Sequence record: NC_106514.1 | Length of the DNA: 64,000 nt | From: Escherichia phage vB_EcoS_ESCO40 | Direction: 5' to 3' (one strand) | Position numbers and translations under genes: made by a program | In this document: positions 4,593-24,150 of the stretch, one piece after another | Layout of the letters: each line of letters opens with the position of its first letter | Position numbering within the stretch: the first letter of the stretch is position 1 | Notes under the pieces: model-generated | The model's input: the letters and a program-made list of their open reading frames with translations, nothing else | Told to the model about the DNA's origin: nothing | Databases searched by the model: none

Positions 4593-5734
4593 AAGAAATC
4601 TCCAAATTCATTACCCAGATCTTTCAGAGTATCAGTAGAGGTCTCAGTTACCTGACCTACACGGTAAGCTGCACCAATCTGGATTTCTTGCGGAGCAGGC
4701 TGTAGAGAAGTAGTATCCAACCAGTTCATGATCCACGGAATAGGGTTTTTGGTGATTACAGGCAGATTACTTGGCCATTCTACACCGATGTGCATAAATG
4801 CATTGCGCCCCACAAAGTACAGATATTCTTCTAGAAGTTCTGCATTCAAGCCAATCAGACTACGACCTTTGAAAATGAAATGACCCCATTCAATTTCAGT
4901 TTTCAGAGTTTTCAGGAGCTGTGCTGGTGCTTTAGCCACTGCCTCATCTACCAGATCTTTGTCAAATTGCTGAAACATAATCTGGATGATTGCTTTGGAC
5001 ATCTGAGTGTGCAGAGCTTCATCTTTAGCGATTAATTGCAGATTTTTAGCAATACCTTGCAGAATATCGTTCTCTGCTAATGCAAAGGTACATGCAAAGG
5101 ATGCGTAAAACTGCATTGCTTCCAGACCATAGATCGCAAAGTAAGCGTCTAATAGTTTAGCCTGAGTTTCACGTTTAACTTCAGGGAACTCAGTTTCTGG
5201 ATATGTATTGTCGCCACGATGATCGCGTACTGCAATGAAATACTGACCTAACTGGTACAGTTCATCGAATAGTTCAACAGAATCAGCGATGCGTGCGAAT
5301 GCTTCCTGGTTTTTGGTTACAGAATCAATAAATTCTGCTGGATCAGTCAACACATTACGAATAATATTACTATATGCACGGCTATGCAGATCTTCGAAGT
5401 AGCTCCACTGCTTGAGCATACCTTCCAATTCTGGACGACTTACAAGCGGCATAATAGCTGCTTCAGGAGCACGACTGATAAAGGAATCTGTTTGGGTCTG
5501 CCATGCTAAGTTCAGGAGTGTAATTTCCTGAATTTCACGTGGGAGGTTGGGCCATTGTTTCTTATCTGCTTCCAGACTGATTTCAGTTTCAGTCCAAAAT
5601 TGAGAGCGTTGCAGAAGTGCCAGACGCTCTAATTCTGGATGTGCTACACGCACATAATCTGCGATACCTAGAGAATCGCCCAGGAAAAGATCAGCGTTAG
5701 TATGATCCCAATTCAGGTTTAGTAAAGTAGTCAT
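4589..5734 (-). CDS. nrdB: ribonucleotide reductase class Ia small subunit
   Basis: 381-aa ORF immediately downstream of nrdA, typical NrdB size and helical composition; own promoter at 5766-5794. Confidence 0.8.
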   Translation of the reverse strand: MTTLLNLNWDHTNADLFLGDSLGIADYVRVAHPELERLALLQRSQFWTETEISLEADKKQWPNLPREIQEITLLNLAWQTQTDSFISRAPEAAIMPLVSRPELEGMLKQWSYFEDLHSRAYSNIIRNVLTDPAEFIDSVTKNQEAFARIADSVELFDELYQLGQYFIAVRDHRGDNTYPETEFPEVKRETQAKLLDAYFAIYGLEAMQFYASFACTFALAENDILQGIAKNLQLIAKDEALHTQMSKAIIQIMFQQFDKDLVDEAVAKAPAQLLKTLKTEIEWGHFIFKGRSLIGLNAELLEEYLYFVGRNAFMHIGVEWPSNLPVITKNPIPWIMNWLDTTSLQPAPQEIQIGAAYRVGQVTETSTDTLKDLGNEFGDFL

Positions 5735-20795: not shown

Positions 20796-21104
20796 ATGAG
20801 CGAACAGGTAAATCAAAACTATGAAGGACACGTTGATGACCAGTCCATCATACTTTGGGAGAAGGAGGGGGAACAAGTAAGATTAACAGTATCTGAATTT
20901 CGTGGGAATCTATACATGGGTATTCGTTACTGGCTTCTTGATATTAATGATGAATGGTTTCCAACGAAATCTGGCTTCTCTTTTCCTTACACCCTAGAAA
21001 CAACATCACAGCTTTTCTATGCGTTTACACAGATTCTTAGTGAATCTGAGGTTTTACATGAAGTACAGAAACGAGCTGAAGAACTCAAAGCCAAGAATGC
21101 CTAG
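20796..21104 (+). CDS. hypothetical protein
   Basis: 102-aa ORF; stop lies inside the following terminator stem. Confidence 0.5.
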   Translation: MSEQVNQNYEGHVDDQSIILWEKEGEQVRLTVSEFRGNLYMGIRYWLLDINDEWFPTKSGFSFPYTLETTSQLFYAFTQILSESEVLHEVQKRAEELKAKNA

Positions 21105-21122
21105 TTCTTGGCTTTTTCTTTA
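21089..21122 (+). terminator. rho-independent terminator
   Basis: AGCCAAGAA / TTCTTGGCT 9-bp stem then TTTTTCTTTAT. Confidence 0.7.
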
Positions 21123-21131
21123 TAAATGTAT

Positions 21132-21160
21132 TTGCTTTCAACTCAGTTTTGTTATATAAT
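21132..21160 (+). promoter_or_regulatory. sigma70-type early promoter (TTGCTT-17-TATAAT)
   Basis: TTGCTT 21132-21137, TATAAT 21155-21160, then ATTTATATAAATTAATGAGAGG. Confidence 0.65.
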
Positions 21161-21174
21161 ATTTATATAAATTA

Positions 21175-21390
21175 ATGAGAGGATCAATCATGGCAATGAC
21201 AGTAACACTTCCCAAGATTCAAGCAAAACTTAATCTACTTTCCACAGCACGTATTAATTATCAAGATAGCATAGGCACAGTAAATCAAAAAGCGTACAAA
21301 GATGCGTTTCTGAAAGAATCTGCTGATTTGATGGATATGGTTACACAATATAATAAAGAACTCAAGATGGAAATCGCCGATGATGAATAA
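21175..21390 (+). CDS. hypothetical small protein
   Basis: 71-aa ORF with GAGAGGA site; overlaps the ligase start. Confidence 0.5.
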   Translation: MRGSIMAMTVTLPKIQAKLNLLSTARINYQDSIGTVNQKAYKDAFLKESADLMDMVTQYNKELKMEIADDE

Positions 21391-22354
21391 TGTAAAAGGC
21401 TTTATTAGGCGTTGTCAAGAAGCATATTATCAAGGCATGTCTTTAATCTCTGATGAGGAGTATGATTGCCTGGTAAAACGCTTCCCGTTAGAAGAAGAGA
21501 TCGGGCCTAAAGGTGATATTCCACATCTGTATCGTATGTATTCTTTACAGAAAGTTTATTATAATCGTGGAGATAAACCCCCATTTAACCCCTTAGGTCA
21601 GGTAGAAACTGATAAGTTAGATGGTTGTGCAATTTCTCTGTTATATATTAACGGCGAATTTGTCCAAGCATTAACCCGTGGTAATGGTATTCTAGGGAAT
21701 GATGTCACAAGCAACGTAAGATTGCTGAACATTCCTAAAAAGATTTCCCAAAAAGTACCTACTCAAATCACTGGTGAAGTTCTAATTACAAAAGAAGTAG
21801 AAAATAAACGTAACTTTGCCTCTGGTGCTATTAACCTCAAAGATAGTGATGATTTCGTACAACGCATTGGAGAAGGCGGTTTAATCTTTGTTGCTTACGG
21901 TATCCAATGTTCTGCTGAATCTGTAGGTATTACAGAAGCATACTTAAAAGATATGCTTTGGCTAGAGAATGAGAACTTCTTAACAGTTGTTAATGTGCGT
22001 TCCTTCTTTAAATGGATTCCGACGGACGGTAAAGTTGTTCGTATTAATGACAACAACAAATTCTTCCGTGAAGGCTGGACTAATAAATTCCCTCGTGGAG
22101 CATTCGCTATTAAAGAGGATGAAGAAGGCGAAATTACAACTCTTACTAAAGTTGAATGGCAGGTAGGGGCTTCTGGTAAAGTAACTCCAGTTGGTTATTT
22201 CGAACCGGTAATTATTGATGATGCTACAATTGTTAAGGCGACTCTTAATAACGTTGATTATATTAACTCTCTCGATCTAGAGATCGGTTGCCAGATTCGA
22301 GTGATTCGTGCTGGTGGTGTAATCCCGTGCATAGTAGAGCGAGTATACGATTAA
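21380..22354 (+). CDS. ligA: NAD-dependent DNA ligase, N-terminal (adenylation/OB) half
   Basis: KLDG adenylation-lysine motif (ETDKLDGCAISLLY), TRGNGILGNDVT; ORF ends before the Zn-finger/HhH/BRCT part. Confidence 0.75.
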   Translation: MMNNVKGFIRRCQEAYYQGMSLISDEEYDCLVKRFPLEEEIGPKGDIPHLYRMYSLQKVYYNRGDKPPFNPLGQVETDKLDGCAISLLYINGEFVQALTRGNGILGNDVTSNVRLLNIPKKISQKVPTQITGEVLITKEVENKRNFASGAINLKDSDDFVQRIGEGGLIFVAYGIQCSAESVGITEAYLKDMLWLENENFLTVVNVRSFFKWIPTDGKVVRINDNNKFFREGWTNKFPRGAFAIKEDEEGEITTLTKVEWQVGASGKVTPVGYFEPVIIDDATIVKATLNNVDYINSLDLEIGCQIRVIRAGGVIPCIVERVYD

Positions 22355-22404
22355 TACATAACCCTTTGCTACCCATCTACCATATCGGAATTATAAAGTG
22401 GTTA

Positions 22405-22433
22405 TTGACATTTTCGCCGCTTAGGTATATACT
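22405..22433 (+). promoter_or_regulatory. sigma70-type promoter (TTGACA-17-TATACT) inside the ligase spacer
   Basis: TTGACA 22405-22410, TATACT 22428-22433; followed by an 8-codon mini-ORF (ATG GCG AGG GTA AGC AAA GTT AGT TAA). Confidence 0.5.
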
Positions 22434-22497
22434 ATTATCATTCAGTTGAGGGATAGAAAGTTATGGCGAGGGTAAGCAAAGTTAGTTAAAATTGTAG

Positions 22498-22526
22498 TTG
22501 CTAAATGCTTAAATACTTGCTATAAT
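22498..22526 (+). promoter_or_regulatory. sigma70-type early promoter (TTGCTA-17-TATAAT)
   Basis: TTGCTA 22498-22503, TATAAT 22521-22526, then ATTTATATAAATTGATAAGGAAG. Confidence 0.65.
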
Positions 22527-22556
22527 ATTTATATAAATTGATAAGGAAGAAATTTG

Positions 22557-23336
22557 ATGAAAATCGAAATTCCAACACAATGTCCCTCTTGTGGTTCTAA
22601 GCTAGATCTTGTCAACGGACAATTATTCTGTCGTAATAAGTCCAACTGTCCAGCGCAATCAAGTAAGTTAATTGAGAACTTCTGTACAAAAATGAAGTTA
22701 AAGGGCTTTGGCCCGAAAACTATTGAGAAGCTGGAGCTGACGAAGATTTCAGAACTATTTTACCTAACCGAAGAAGATTTGGTTAGAGCCGTGGGTAGCA
22801 AGGTTGCCGCTAAGTTAATTAGCGAATTAAATACTAAAGTTCGCGGAGACATTGACTTTGGTTCAGTTCTCGGTTCTTTAGGAATCCCTCTAATTGGAGA
22901 GGTTGCAGCAAAGAAATTGTCCCAAAATTGCACCAGTTTTCAAGATGTGAGAGCTGATGGCAAAGCTGGAGAAAATTATAAAGCCTGGCTAAATTCCCCA
23001 CAAGGCAAGGATGTTATCGAATTACCGTGGAAATTCACAACTGGTATTAAAGGTGCTAAAGCTGGGGTCATCATTACTGATGGTCTAGTAGCCCAGCCAA
23101 ATGGAATCACGGTGTGTATTACCGGGTCTTTGCAAGATTTTGCAAATAGAACGGATGCAACAAATTATTTAGAAGGTCTAGGGTATACTGTTAAAAAATC
23201 AGTTACCAAAGACGTTAAATACCTAATCTGTGAGGATGAATCGAAGCGTTCTTCCTCATCTTATAAGAAAGCCGAAACGAATGGGATAGAAATCCTGTCG
23301 ATTAAAGAACTATTGGAGAAAAATAATAATGTCTAA
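22557..23336 (+). CDS. ligA: NAD-dependent DNA ligase, C-terminal (zinc-finger/HhH/BRCT) half
   Basis: four-Cys zinc finger CPSCGSKLDLVNGQLFCRNKSNCPAQ and HhH-like KLKGFGPKTIEKL; ATG 22557 with AAGGAAG site. Confidence 0.7.
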   Translation: MKIEIPTQCPSCGSKLDLVNGQLFCRNKSNCPAQSSKLIENFCTKMKLKGFGPKTIEKLELTKISELFYLTEEDLVRAVGSKVAAKLISELNTKVRGDIDFGSVLGSLGIPLIGEVAAKKLSQNCTSFQDVRADGKAGENYKAWLNSPQGKDVIELPWKFTTGIKGAKAGVIITDGLVAQPNGITVCITGSLQDFANRTDATNYLEGLGYTVKKSVTKDVKYLICEDESKRSSSSYKKAETNGIEILSIKELLEKNNNV

Positions 23337-24096
23337 ACTGAACTGGAACGTAGAAGGTGTAACCGAGTCTCTGAAAGCAAAAGCCACTGCTCTGGGTGTT
23401 GATGTAATCTCTCAAGAACAAGTAGCTACTATCGCTGCTGAACTGGCCGCTGAAACTGGCAAAGACGTTACCGCTCGCTCTGTTGGCTCTAAGCTGCGTA
23501 AAGAAGGTTTCGAAGTACAGAAAGCTAACGAAGTACAGAAATCTCCGTGGACTCCTGAGCAGGAAGCTGAACTGGTTGATTTCCTGAACGCTCATGCTGG
23601 TCAGTATACTTATGCTGAAATCGCTGCTGCTGTAGCTGGTGGTCAATTTGGTGCTAAGCAGGTACAGGGTAAGATCCTGAGTCTGGAAATGACCGCTTCT
23701 GTTAAACCAACTGAAAAAGCTGCTGCTGTTCGTTCCTTCACTCCGGATGAAGAAACTGACTTTGTTAATCAGGTTGTTGCTGGTGCTACTATTGAAGCTA
23801 TCGCTGCTCACTTCGGTCGTAATATCAAGCAGATCCGTGGTAAAGCTCTGAGTCTGCTGCGTGAAGGTCGTATCGCTGCTATGCCGGTACAGGAAACTTC
23901 AAGTGCTAAAACCCGTGAAGATCTGTTAGAAGGTCTGGATCTGGCTAATATGACCGTTGCTGAGATCGCTGAGAAAACTGGTAAGTCTGAGCGCGGTGTT
24001 AAATCTATGCTGTCTCGTCGTGGTCTGGTTGCTAAGGACTATGATGGTGCCGCTAAGCGTGCTAAACTGGATGCAAAAGCTGCGGCTGCTGAATAA
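23329..24096 (+). CDS. abundant-type protein with four degenerate ~30-aa HTH-like repeats (candidate DNA-binding protein)
   Basis: repeats TIAAELAAETGKDVTARSVGSKLRKEG / TYAEIAAAVAGG..QGKILSLE / TIEAIAAHFGRNIKQIRGKALSLLREG / TVAEIAEKTGKSERGVKSMLSRRG; strongly biased E. coli-optimal codons. Confidence 0.55.
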   Translation: MSKLNWNVEGVTESLKAKATALGVDVISQEQVATIAAELAAETGKDVTARSVGSKLRKEGFEVQKANEVQKSPWTPEQEAELVDFLNAHAGQYTYAEIAAAVAGGQFGAKQVQGKILSLEMTASVKPTEKAAAVRSFTPDEETDFVNQVVAGATIEAIAAHFGRNIKQIRGKALSLLREGRIAAMPVQETSSAKTREDLLEGLDLANMTVAEIAEKTGKSERGVKSMLSRRGLVAKDYDGAAKRAKLDAKAAAAE

Positions 24097-24114
24097 TCTG
24101 GTAAATTAAACCTA

Positions 24115-24150
24115 AGGGGAGGGGGCTATGCTCCTTCCCCTTTTTGCATT
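24115..24150 (+). terminator. rho-independent terminator
   Basis: GGGGAGG...CCTTCCCC stem then TTTTTGCATTT. Confidence 0.6.

Follow-up and report, generated by a model that had tools for sequence, protein, structure and literature searches.

Bacterial NAD-dependent DNA ligases, such as the LigA enzymes of E. coli (2OWO) and Thermus (1V9P/1DGS), are single chains of ~670 aa. The T5-type phage ligases share with these enzymes the order of the domains, the catalytic residues and the zinc-binding residues, but are more compact, with ~583 aa in total on two chains. In the GenBank record of phage T5 (AY692264), ligA, ligB and the promoters P-K 28b and P-K 28a are annotated, and the split T5 ligase is credited in the literature to the paper reporting the T5 genome (Wang et al. 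2005). Two PDB entries, 9HU3 and 9I5I, contain 'DNA ligase (NAD(+))' and 'DNA ligase subunit B' of the Providencia phage PSTCR5 / vB_PreS_PR1 as separate chains; the chain B sequence and that of ligB from PSTCR5/PR1 are 100% identical. In the literature searched, no paper describing 9HU3/9I5I and no published activity assay of a reconstituted T5-type LigA and LigB was found. The split ligase is a textbook-level trait of T5-like phages, present in GenBank annotation, in the cited literature and in the PDB. A viral NAD-dependent ligase divided over separate proteins is likewise seen in the phage solo Nlig-Ia proteins (PMC9503650); there, however, the break separates domain Ia from the nucleotidyltransferase domain, whereas in the T5 type it separates the OB fold from the zinc finger.

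Identity of the locus and its two ligase genes

The window analysed was the whole 64,000-nt stretch of DNA from Escherichia phage vB_EcoS_ESCO40 (NC_106514.1), and all features given here lie on its + strand. Judged by its sequence, the locus is ligA-ligB of a T5-like phage (Tequintavirus), with the NAD-dependent DNA ligase encoded on two genes. LigA was 99% and LigB 98% identical to the T5 proteins at the aa level, and the spacer between the genes was 100% identical. The two-gene ligase with promoters between its halves is real, but already known. The neighbours were also those of T5, with a PC4-like gene upstream and D5 and a DnaB-like helicase downstream; the order ligA, ligB, D5, DnaB-like helicase is the T5-type synteny and was found both in the window and in relatives.

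The upstream transcription unit ends in a terminator-like hairpin (21087-21115), consisting of a 12-bp stem and then a T run, and in phage HdH2 a terminator is annotated at the equivalent place. It is followed by a T5-family early promoter, TTGCTT-17-TATAAT (21132-21160), which was detected in a promoter-family scan upstream of the ligA unit and matches the 'putative promoter' just before ligA in AY692264. Between this promoter and ligA, ESCO40 has an extra 71-aa ORF (21175-21390) that T5 lacks. This ORF, taken from the ORF list, overlaps the start of ligA by 11 nt and had no Pfam match. It is a variable accessory ORF, being missing from T5 and bombadil, with other small ORFs in its place in oldekolle and HdH2. 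At the other end of the locus, the gene for the D5 DNA-binding protein (23329-24096), assigned from the ORF list and the D5 annotation of relatives, overlaps the end of ligB by 8 nt and shares a transcription unit with it. The unit ends at a strong intrinsic terminator (24114-24142) with a 13-bp stem, 8 GC pairs and a T run, and HdH2 has a terminator here as well.

Instead of the single polypeptide of the LigA family, two ORFs 202 bp apart were found. In the initial annotation, an adenylation half with a KLDG motif and a zinc-finger/HhH/BRCT half had been placed on separate ORFs, and this assignment was confirmed. The first gene, ligA (21380-22354), encodes 324 aa comprising domain Ia, an adenylation domain and an OB fold, with Pfam matches to DNA_ligase_aden (PF01653, E 2.3e-23) and DNA_ligase_OB (PF03120, E 3.8e-22) and a match to chain A of 9HU3 (E 9e-104). 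The KLDG motif corresponds to LigA residues 79-82; K79-L-D-G was invariant in relatives and aligned with the KLDG of E. coli LigA. The presence of domain Ia was evident from the LigA family profile, which from its position 4 aligned to Thermus ligase residue 12, and from the conserved AYY-G-p-ISD-EYD segment of this domain.

The second gene, ligB (22557-23336), encodes subunit B of the NAD-dependent DNA ligase with a Cys4 zinc finger, HhH and BRCT, and matched chain B of 9HU3 (E 1e-79). LigB is 259 aa long when read from the ATG at 22557, while the longest ORF begins at TTG 22554. A ribosome-binding site, AAGGAAG (22543-22549), read from the sequence 7 nt 5' of this ATG, was kept in relatives. 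The ligase homology of this C-terminal ORF was borne out by profile search, with BRCT (E 1.6e-8) reaching 35.1 bits against a cut-off of 21.3. The HhH matches were weaker, HHH_2 scoring 25 bits, slightly below its cut-off of 27, and no Pfam zinc-finger model matched LigB at E <= 0.01. The four zinc-finger cysteines (C9, C12, C25 and C31) were, nevertheless, invariant across relatives. A single-sequence AlphaFold model of LigB had a mean pLDDT of 34.7 and was unusable.

Alignment to the full-length enzymes located the break. The LigA family profile covered residues 12-390 of Thermus ligase 1V9P, its OB fold aligning to residues 282-391 of E. coli LigA (2OWO), and the LigB alignment started at 2OWO residue 402 and covered residues 400-653 of the Thermus ligase. 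The break point is the OB/zinc-finger boundary, between the E. coli LigA-equivalent positions 391 and 402.

The enzyme of PSTCR5/PR1 (Priunavirus) is orthologous, with the break point and the tandem promoters in the gap as in ESCO40, although aa identity is only 54-56%. For both halves, dN/dS was 0.02-0.14, corresponding to strong purifying selection, and ligA and ligB always co-occurred and had similar evolutionary rates. The initial annotation had held that the ligase must work as a two-subunit enzyme. Such an enzyme is supported by the intact halves, the purifying selection, the conserved split and the presence of both orthologue chains in 9HU3/9I5I, and LigA and LigB of ESCO40 would be expected to assemble and seal nicks.

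An alternative division of labour would make LigA a self-sufficient minimal ligase; LigB, made in surplus through its own promoters, would have a role apart, in DNA binding or recruitment, alongside D5. Protein recruitment is a frequent function of BRCT domains, and ligB has additional promoters and a tight linkage to D5 in all lineages. This reading is nonetheless unlikely. Both PDB entries hold the two chains together, their genes co-occur without exception and evolve at similar rates, and uninterrupted relatives join the A and B parts by a linker of 3-14 residues. Furthermore, LigN, a C-terminally truncated NAD ligase without the zinc finger, HhH and BRCT, self-adenylates but cannot ligate (PMC1684257).

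The inter-ligase spacer and its promoters

The region between the two genes (22355-22556) is 202 bp long, matching the ~200-bp spacer with two promoter-like elements that had been proposed, and was classed as a promoter region and not an intron. Stop codons were present in all three frames (7, 5 and 7), and the frame of ligB differs from that of ligA. Because of these stops and the change of frame, no single frameshift could fuse ligA and ligB. The same layout was seen in over 400 phage genomes that had been sequenced independently. A frameshift introduced by sequencing, or a pseudogene in decay, with a single ligase as the real gene, might be suspected on the general prior that split ORFs often arise from errors, and from the different frames of the two genes. 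It was refuted by the 5-7 stops per frame across 202 bp, the number of independent genomes with this layout, the low dN/dS of both halves, the ribosome-binding site and ATG that ligB has of its own, and the two chains of the PDB entry, and its probability is close to nil.

A further possibility is that the spacer is removed or skipped to give one polypeptide, by a self-splicing intron, by trans-splicing of a split intein or by translational bypassing of the T4 gene 60 type. Introns, inteins and bypass elements are known to interrupt phage genes. However, a search of 21000-24000 against Rfam with a permissive threshold gave nothing relevant, intron families included, and the RNA fold of the spacer was unexceptional (z-score -0.78). 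The end of LigA and the start of LigB lie exactly at the OB/zinc-finger boundary, which leaves no residues for an intein. With ordinary genes occupying the gap in Vibrio phages and the orthologue in the PDB consisting of two chains, removal or skipping of the spacer is considered extremely improbable.

Both promoter-like elements were found where they had been proposed, and their names are those of the GenBank annotation of T5. The distal promoter, P-K 28b (22405-22433), has the structure TTGACA-17-TATACT (11/12) and lies within the feature annotated in T5 as 'promoter P-K 28b' (window 22385-22459, corresponding to L003:2586-2660). The proximal promoter, P-K 28a (22498-22526), is TTGCTA-17-TATAAT (10/12), with TG before the -10 hexamer, and lies within the T5 feature 'promoter P-K 28a' (window 22478-22552). 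In the 4-kb region, which is A+T-rich, seven promoter-like sites were found versus 8.8 expected in shuffled sequence. Because the site count did not exceed that of shuffled sequence, the significance of the two promoters rests on their conservation and on the T5 annotation.

This conservation was extensive. The hexamers of P-K 28a and P-K 28b were kept across five lineages with their geometry preserved, and the tandem promoters were 88-96 bp apart across the family. Every lineage, from the Klebsiella phages to the Vibrio phages, had a distal promoter scoring 11/12, with TTGACA or TTGACG, 17 nt, and TATACT or TATAAT. For the proximal promoter, the distance from the end of the -10 hexamer to the ligB start was 29-30 nt in nine of the ten genomes scanned; in the tenth, My1, it was also 30 nt after correction of a likely mis-annotated ligB start. 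The spacer as a whole was more conserved than the fourfold-degenerate sites of the flanking genes, at 94% identity versus 52% and 72% in the comparison with phiR2-01, and 70% versus 38% and 32% in that with KpGranit. Purifying selection thus acts on the spacer as well as on the two genes.

The two promoters differ in type. P-K 28a has the extended consensus of the T5 early promoters, namely an A/T-rich upstream tract, TTGCTw, 17 nt, TATAATAT, then ATAAATTGA. It was paralogous to at least eight other promoters in the window, and the extended consensus occurred at at least 15 other window sites. The T5 early promoter family includes the widely used N25 promoter. P-K 28b is unlike this family, with a canonical TTGACA -35 hexamer and other flanks, and its closest counterparts were the TTGACA/T promoters before ligB in distant relatives.

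Between 21115 and 24114, including the interval between ligA and ligB, no terminator-like sites were found. Since there is no terminator after ligA, read-through from the 21132 promoter should also cover ligB, and ligB is probably co-transcribed with ligA as well as transcribed from its own promoters. The proposal that the C-terminal half is transcribed independently was therefore retained in part: the T5 annotation and the conserved hexamers support promoters of its own, but with no terminator after ligA these would act additionally. For the spacer, nothing useful on transcript mapping, T5 transcription starts or the K28 promoter names was obtained from the literature searched. We infer from the sequence features that both promoters fire in vivo and that read-through from upstream occurs.

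The spacer was also said to hold an 8-codon mini-ORF with a ribosome site. An ORF of this length (22463-22489; MARVSKVS, then stop) can be read from the sequence in the leader of P-K 28b, and GAGGGA precedes it by 9 nt. Its ATG or frame was lost in KpGranit, My1 and PSTCR5, and it was missing from the relatives with gaps of 59-74 bp. A role as a conserved leader peptide was rejected, given this loss of start or frame outside Markadamsvirinae. As it is not conserved outside the closest subfamily, the mini-ORF is probably not functional as a gene.

Distribution of split and uninterrupted ligases

The split was kept in all Demerecviridae lineages sampled, comprising Markadamsvirinae, Sugarlandvirus, Myunavirus, Priunavirus and the Vibrio T5-likes, and D5 was found closely after ligB in every lineage. 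The split ligase extends far beyond the cultured T5 family, to about 100 protein clusters at 50% identity. In distant loci, D5 homologues (44-49% identity) lay directly after ligB or after a fused ligase. A near-consensus sigma-70 promoter was present directly upstream of ligB in every split relative examined (five cultured lineages and eight distinct uncultivated ones). Among the uncultivated viral contigs, all eight distinct split loci had an 11-12/12 promoter upstream of ligB, the chance of which is ~1.3% per locus.

Phage 'genes in pieces' are known in which the interruption has a mobile origin, such as the Aeh1 ribonucleotide reductase split by a homing endonuclease gene; the T4 topoisomerase subunits are a further case. 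These likewise concern enzymes that are single-chain elsewhere and consist here of two polypeptides that reassemble. By this comparison, the ligase split could be the scar of a mobile element, for example a free-standing homing endonuclease gene, with the promoters as its remains. T5-like genomes carry homing endonucleases, and the gap accepts insertions in Vibrio phages, where it contains 1-3 ordinary genes. In contrast to the mobile endonuclease gene of the 'genes in pieces', however, the interrupter of ligA/ligB is a promoter. Homing endonuclease domains were sought with Pfam and PHROG in the gap ORFs of the Vibrio phages and none was found, the products being a DprA-like protein and unknowns only; no lineage had such a domain in a gap ORF. 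Moreover, the smallest gaps (59-74 bp) held just a promoter and a ribosome site. An origin of the split as a mobile-element scar is thus regarded as very unlikely.

Fused genes were also sought among relatives. All cultured lineages sampled were split, but uninterrupted ligases of 555-578 aa exist in T5-like metagenomic contigs, so function does not depend on the split. With the fused protein P0107, whose linker has 9 residues, as query, no viral-contig relative was found. The neighbour-joining tree of the LigB region was star-like, its resolution too poor for counting fission or fusion events.

A probable two-chain ligase and a possible reason for its division

The locus is, with high confidence, best described as a compact NAD-dependent ligase made as two polypeptides cut at the OB/zinc-finger linker, with tandem early promoters between their genes and read-through added. 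Domain Ia, which binds NAD, the nucleotidyltransferase domain with Lys79 as its adenylated residue, and the OB fold would come from subunit A. The zinc finger, the DNA clamp formed by the helix-hairpin-helix domain, and BRCT would come from subunit B, and the two subunits would associate non-covalently to form the nick-sealing enzyme. The spacer would provide the tandem early promoters P-K 28b and P-K 28a, read by the host sigma-70 RNA polymerase, from which a ligB-D5 transcription unit would start and run to the terminator at 24114. As ligB and D5 would also be carried on the read-through transcript from the 21132 promoter, the internal promoters would be an additional source of ligB-D5 transcripts, not the sole one.

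The presence of a promoter before ligB in every split relative, together with the constant proximity of D5, suggests that selection for a ligB-D5 transcription start could underlie the fission. In L035, the one T5-like contig with an uninterrupted ligase that extends far enough downstream, the D5 homologue begins 2 bp after the ligase stop, and there is therefore no intergenic promoter at that point. It is tentatively proposed, as a possibility held at rather less than even confidence, that selection for a strong extra ligB-D5 transcription start caused the ligase to split at the domain linker most tolerant of a break, or has kept it split there. No paper linking the ligB promoter with the ligase split was found, in a search that reached little of the subscription literature. 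If the proposal is true, this ligase would be an enzyme divided in nature by a regulatory element. The split forms with a promoter and the uninterrupted forms, occurring in otherwise syntenic phages, offer a clean comparison in nature for asking how, and for what reason, an enzyme gene comes to be divided at a domain boundary.

The two ligase ORFs and the enzyme they encode

The proposal in the initial annotation that an NAD-dependent DNA ligase is encoded by two separate ORFs was confirmed. ligA (21380-22354, 324 aa) and ligB (22557-23336, 259 aa) lie on the same strand. Pfam matches in the first were to the adenylation domain of NAD ligases (E 2.3e-23) and to the OB fold of ligases (E 3.8e-22), with the adenylation lysine of KLDG at residue 79. 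The ligase-domain homology of the C-terminal ORF was also borne out, by a BRCT match (E 1.6e-8), weaker helix-hairpin-helix matches and four cysteines near the N-terminus (C9, C12, C25 and C31) that are invariant among relatives. When aligned against the family profile, LigA covered the full-length Thermus ligase from domain Ia through the OB fold and reached residue 391 of E. coli LigA. The LigB alignment to E. coli LigA begins at residue 402 and continues onward. The cut therefore falls exactly in the short OB-fold/zinc-finger linker, leaving no room for intein residues. Lys290 in motif V (DGVVIK) of E. coli LigA is an important residue; the aligned position of LigA, R221 (22040-22042), is an invariant arginine in all aligned T5-type subunit A sequences (DGxVxR).

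A sequencing frameshift splitting a single gene was excluded. The frames of the 202-bp spacer (22355-22556) contain 7, 5 and 7 stop codons, and ligB is out of frame with ligA, so one sequencing error cannot join them. An intron or structured RNA in the spacer was likewise rejected, with no Rfam match and an RNA fold z-score of -0.78.

Matches to the ligase region came from 446 T5-like phage records, and Salmonella phages S130 and S131 share 98% identity with it. The spacer with its flanks is 100% identical to bacteriophage T5. The T5 record AY692264 labels 'ligB, NAD-dependent DNA ligase subunit B' and annotates 'promoter P-K 28b' and 'promoter P-K 28a' ahead of it, within the split; both subunits also appear on the T5 map of a 2013 paper (PMC3632103). 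The split ligase with intervening promoters is thus already known from T5-like phages, where it has been annotated and characterised structurally. PDB entries 9HU3 and 9I5I pair a 339-aa 'DNA ligase (NAD(+))' chain (E 9e-104 to LigA) with a 248-aa 'DNA ligase subunit B' chain (E 1e-79 to LigB), the latter 100% identical to ligB of the T5-like Providencia phages PSTCR5 and vB_PreS_PR1.

With the joined halves as tblastn query, all listed phages with at least 47% identity gave two pieces (Markadamsvirinae, Sugarlandvirus, Myunavirus, Priunavirus and Vibrio T5-likes), and phages at 30% identity or less gave a single piece. Both halves showed dN/dS of 0.02-0.14 in comparisons with unsaturated dS, that is, strong purifying selection. 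Given this selection, the retention of the split across lineages and the two chains of 9HU3 and 9I5I, the main interpretation, a two-subunit ligase, proved right. An NAD ligase truncated of its C-terminal domains carries out self-adenylation and no ligation (PMC1684257), a result consistent with a division of labour between subunit A, which would perform the chemistry, and subunit B, which would supply DNA binding. For ESCO40 itself, we infer assembly and activity of LigA and LigB, since a literature search found no published activity assay of a reconstituted T5-type ligase.

Promoters and transcription units

Each of the two promoter-like elements initially noticed in the spacer lies inside an annotated T5 promoter: the hexamer pair at 22405-22433 within P-K 28b (22385-22459), and that at 22498-22526 within P-K 28a (22478-22552). 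Compared with phiR2-01, the spacer is 94% identical, versus 52% (ligA) and 72% (ligB) at fourfold-degenerate sites; for KpGranit, the values are 70% versus 38% and 32%. On these comparisons the spacer is under selection, its conserved portions being the promoters. Neither promoter varies in its -35 or -10 hexamer among Klebsiella, Pectobacterium and Providencia phages, and Vibrio phages have the same pair. Across relatives, the -35 to -35 distance is 88-96 bp, and 29-30 nt separate the end of the proximal -10 from ligB. The latter includes Pectobacterium phage My1 at 30 nt after start correction: within L007:2652-2675, its annotated GTG start is just 9 nt past the -10 and is probably wrong, as the usual MKIEIP N-terminus results from a TTG at 2673 with AAGGAA ahead of it.

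In Vibrio phages the gap holds 1-3 ordinary genes, encoding a DprA-like protein and proteins of unknown function; no endonuclease was found among them. These genes sit between ligA and the promoter pair, so the promoters belong with ligB. The DprA-like gene (phrog_768) is in the gap of Thalassavirus phages (L004:3127-3687, L005:2801-3361) and just upstream of ligA in My1 (L007:1005-1517), so gene order around the halves is fluid.

P-K 28a is typical of the T5 early promoters, a family with at least 15 further copies in the window. They share an extended consensus, in which an A/T-rich tract precedes TTGCTw, 17 nt, TATAATAT and finally ATAAATTGA. Sites include 12122, 15345, 18889, 19915, 21132, 22498 and 31479 on the plus strand and 131, 1998, 2348, 3180, 5794, 9372 and 48848 on the minus strand. 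Site 19915 corresponds to the T5 feature 'P-N 26'; 18889 resembles the N25 promoter of expression vectors, and 1998(-) resembles H207.

The promoter at 21132(+) follows a terminator-like hairpin (21087-21115, +) and precedes a small ORF and ligA. The next such hairpin on the plus strand, a strong one, is at 24114-24142, after the DNA-binding protein gene D5, whose first 8 nt are shared with the ligB end; none was found in between. The small ORF, ligA, ligB and D5 therefore likely form a single unit (21132-24142), to which the two internal promoters would add ligB-D5 transcripts. The claim that ligB is transcribed independently was thus only partly right: it has its own promoters, but no terminator follows ligA and ligB likely also lies in the longer unit. 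This arrangement is read from the sequence, a literature search having turned up no transcript maps.

The small ORF (21175-21390, 71 aa) has no Pfam match and runs 11 nt into ligA. This slot is variable, being empty in T5 and bombadil and holding one different ORF in HdH2 and two in oldekolle. The hairpin at 24114-24142 overlaps ATG 24128, from which the DnaB-like helicase ORF is read both here and in the annotated T5 genome; translation may really begin further downstream.

The 8-codon mini-ORF does exist (22463-22489), but it is unconserved outside Markadamsvirinae and is probably not a gene. In KpGranit its ATG is TTG and the frame is changed, in My1 the region is deleted, in PSTCR5 it differs, and it would not fit into the gaps of those relatives where they measure 59-74 bp. 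What looks like its ribosome site is similar to the early-transcribed region conserved in the early-promoter family.

Split and fused ligases

LigB was searched exhaustively with HMMER against 1.84 billion representative proteins. Among the best 150 matches, 101 were stand-alone (226-275 aa, 31-63% identity to LigB), 10 compact fused (555-578 aa, 33-41%) and 11 canonical (600-720 aa, 29-37%); the other 28 were fragments or of intermediate length. The compact single-chain ligases (P0031, P0054, P0084, P0090, P0107, P0108, P0109, P0115, P0117 and P0128), from metagenomes, are ~100 aa shorter than bacterial LigA and align over the whole length of both subunit profiles, just 3-14 residues separating the two. 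At least two are on contigs with T5-like neighbours. L035 carries a PC4-like gene, the ligase, a D5 homologue (44% identical to D5 of the window) and a DnaB-like helicase; L036, a short contig, has a Phage_T5_A2-family gene upstream of the ligase. The check for a fused gene in relatives thus returned a positive answer. Fused forms occupied about six positions among split ones in a neighbour-joining tree, which is star-like and cannot count events.

Split ligases were examined on 12 viral contigs, representing 8 distinct sequences. In each, a promoter of 11-12/12 consensus immediately precedes ligB, even though the ligA-ligB gap is only 59-74 bp in 10 of them. From the background rate in the same loci, the chance of such a site is ~1.3% per 51-bp window. 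As the split-ligase loci share ancestry, this recurrence reflects conservation, not independent events. Within the zinc-finger codons of the uninterrupted L035 ligase, ~50 nt past the split position of other phages, is an 11/12 promoter-like site (4992-5020; TTGACA-17-CATAAT with TG), which could be chance or an embedded promoter.

No description of the constant pairing of split and strong promoter, together with syntenic fused relatives, was found in the literature. These two observations allow the speculative hypothesis that the promoter drove, or maintains, fission of the ligase. The split-promoter pairing is a modest comparative point beside an otherwise known feature.
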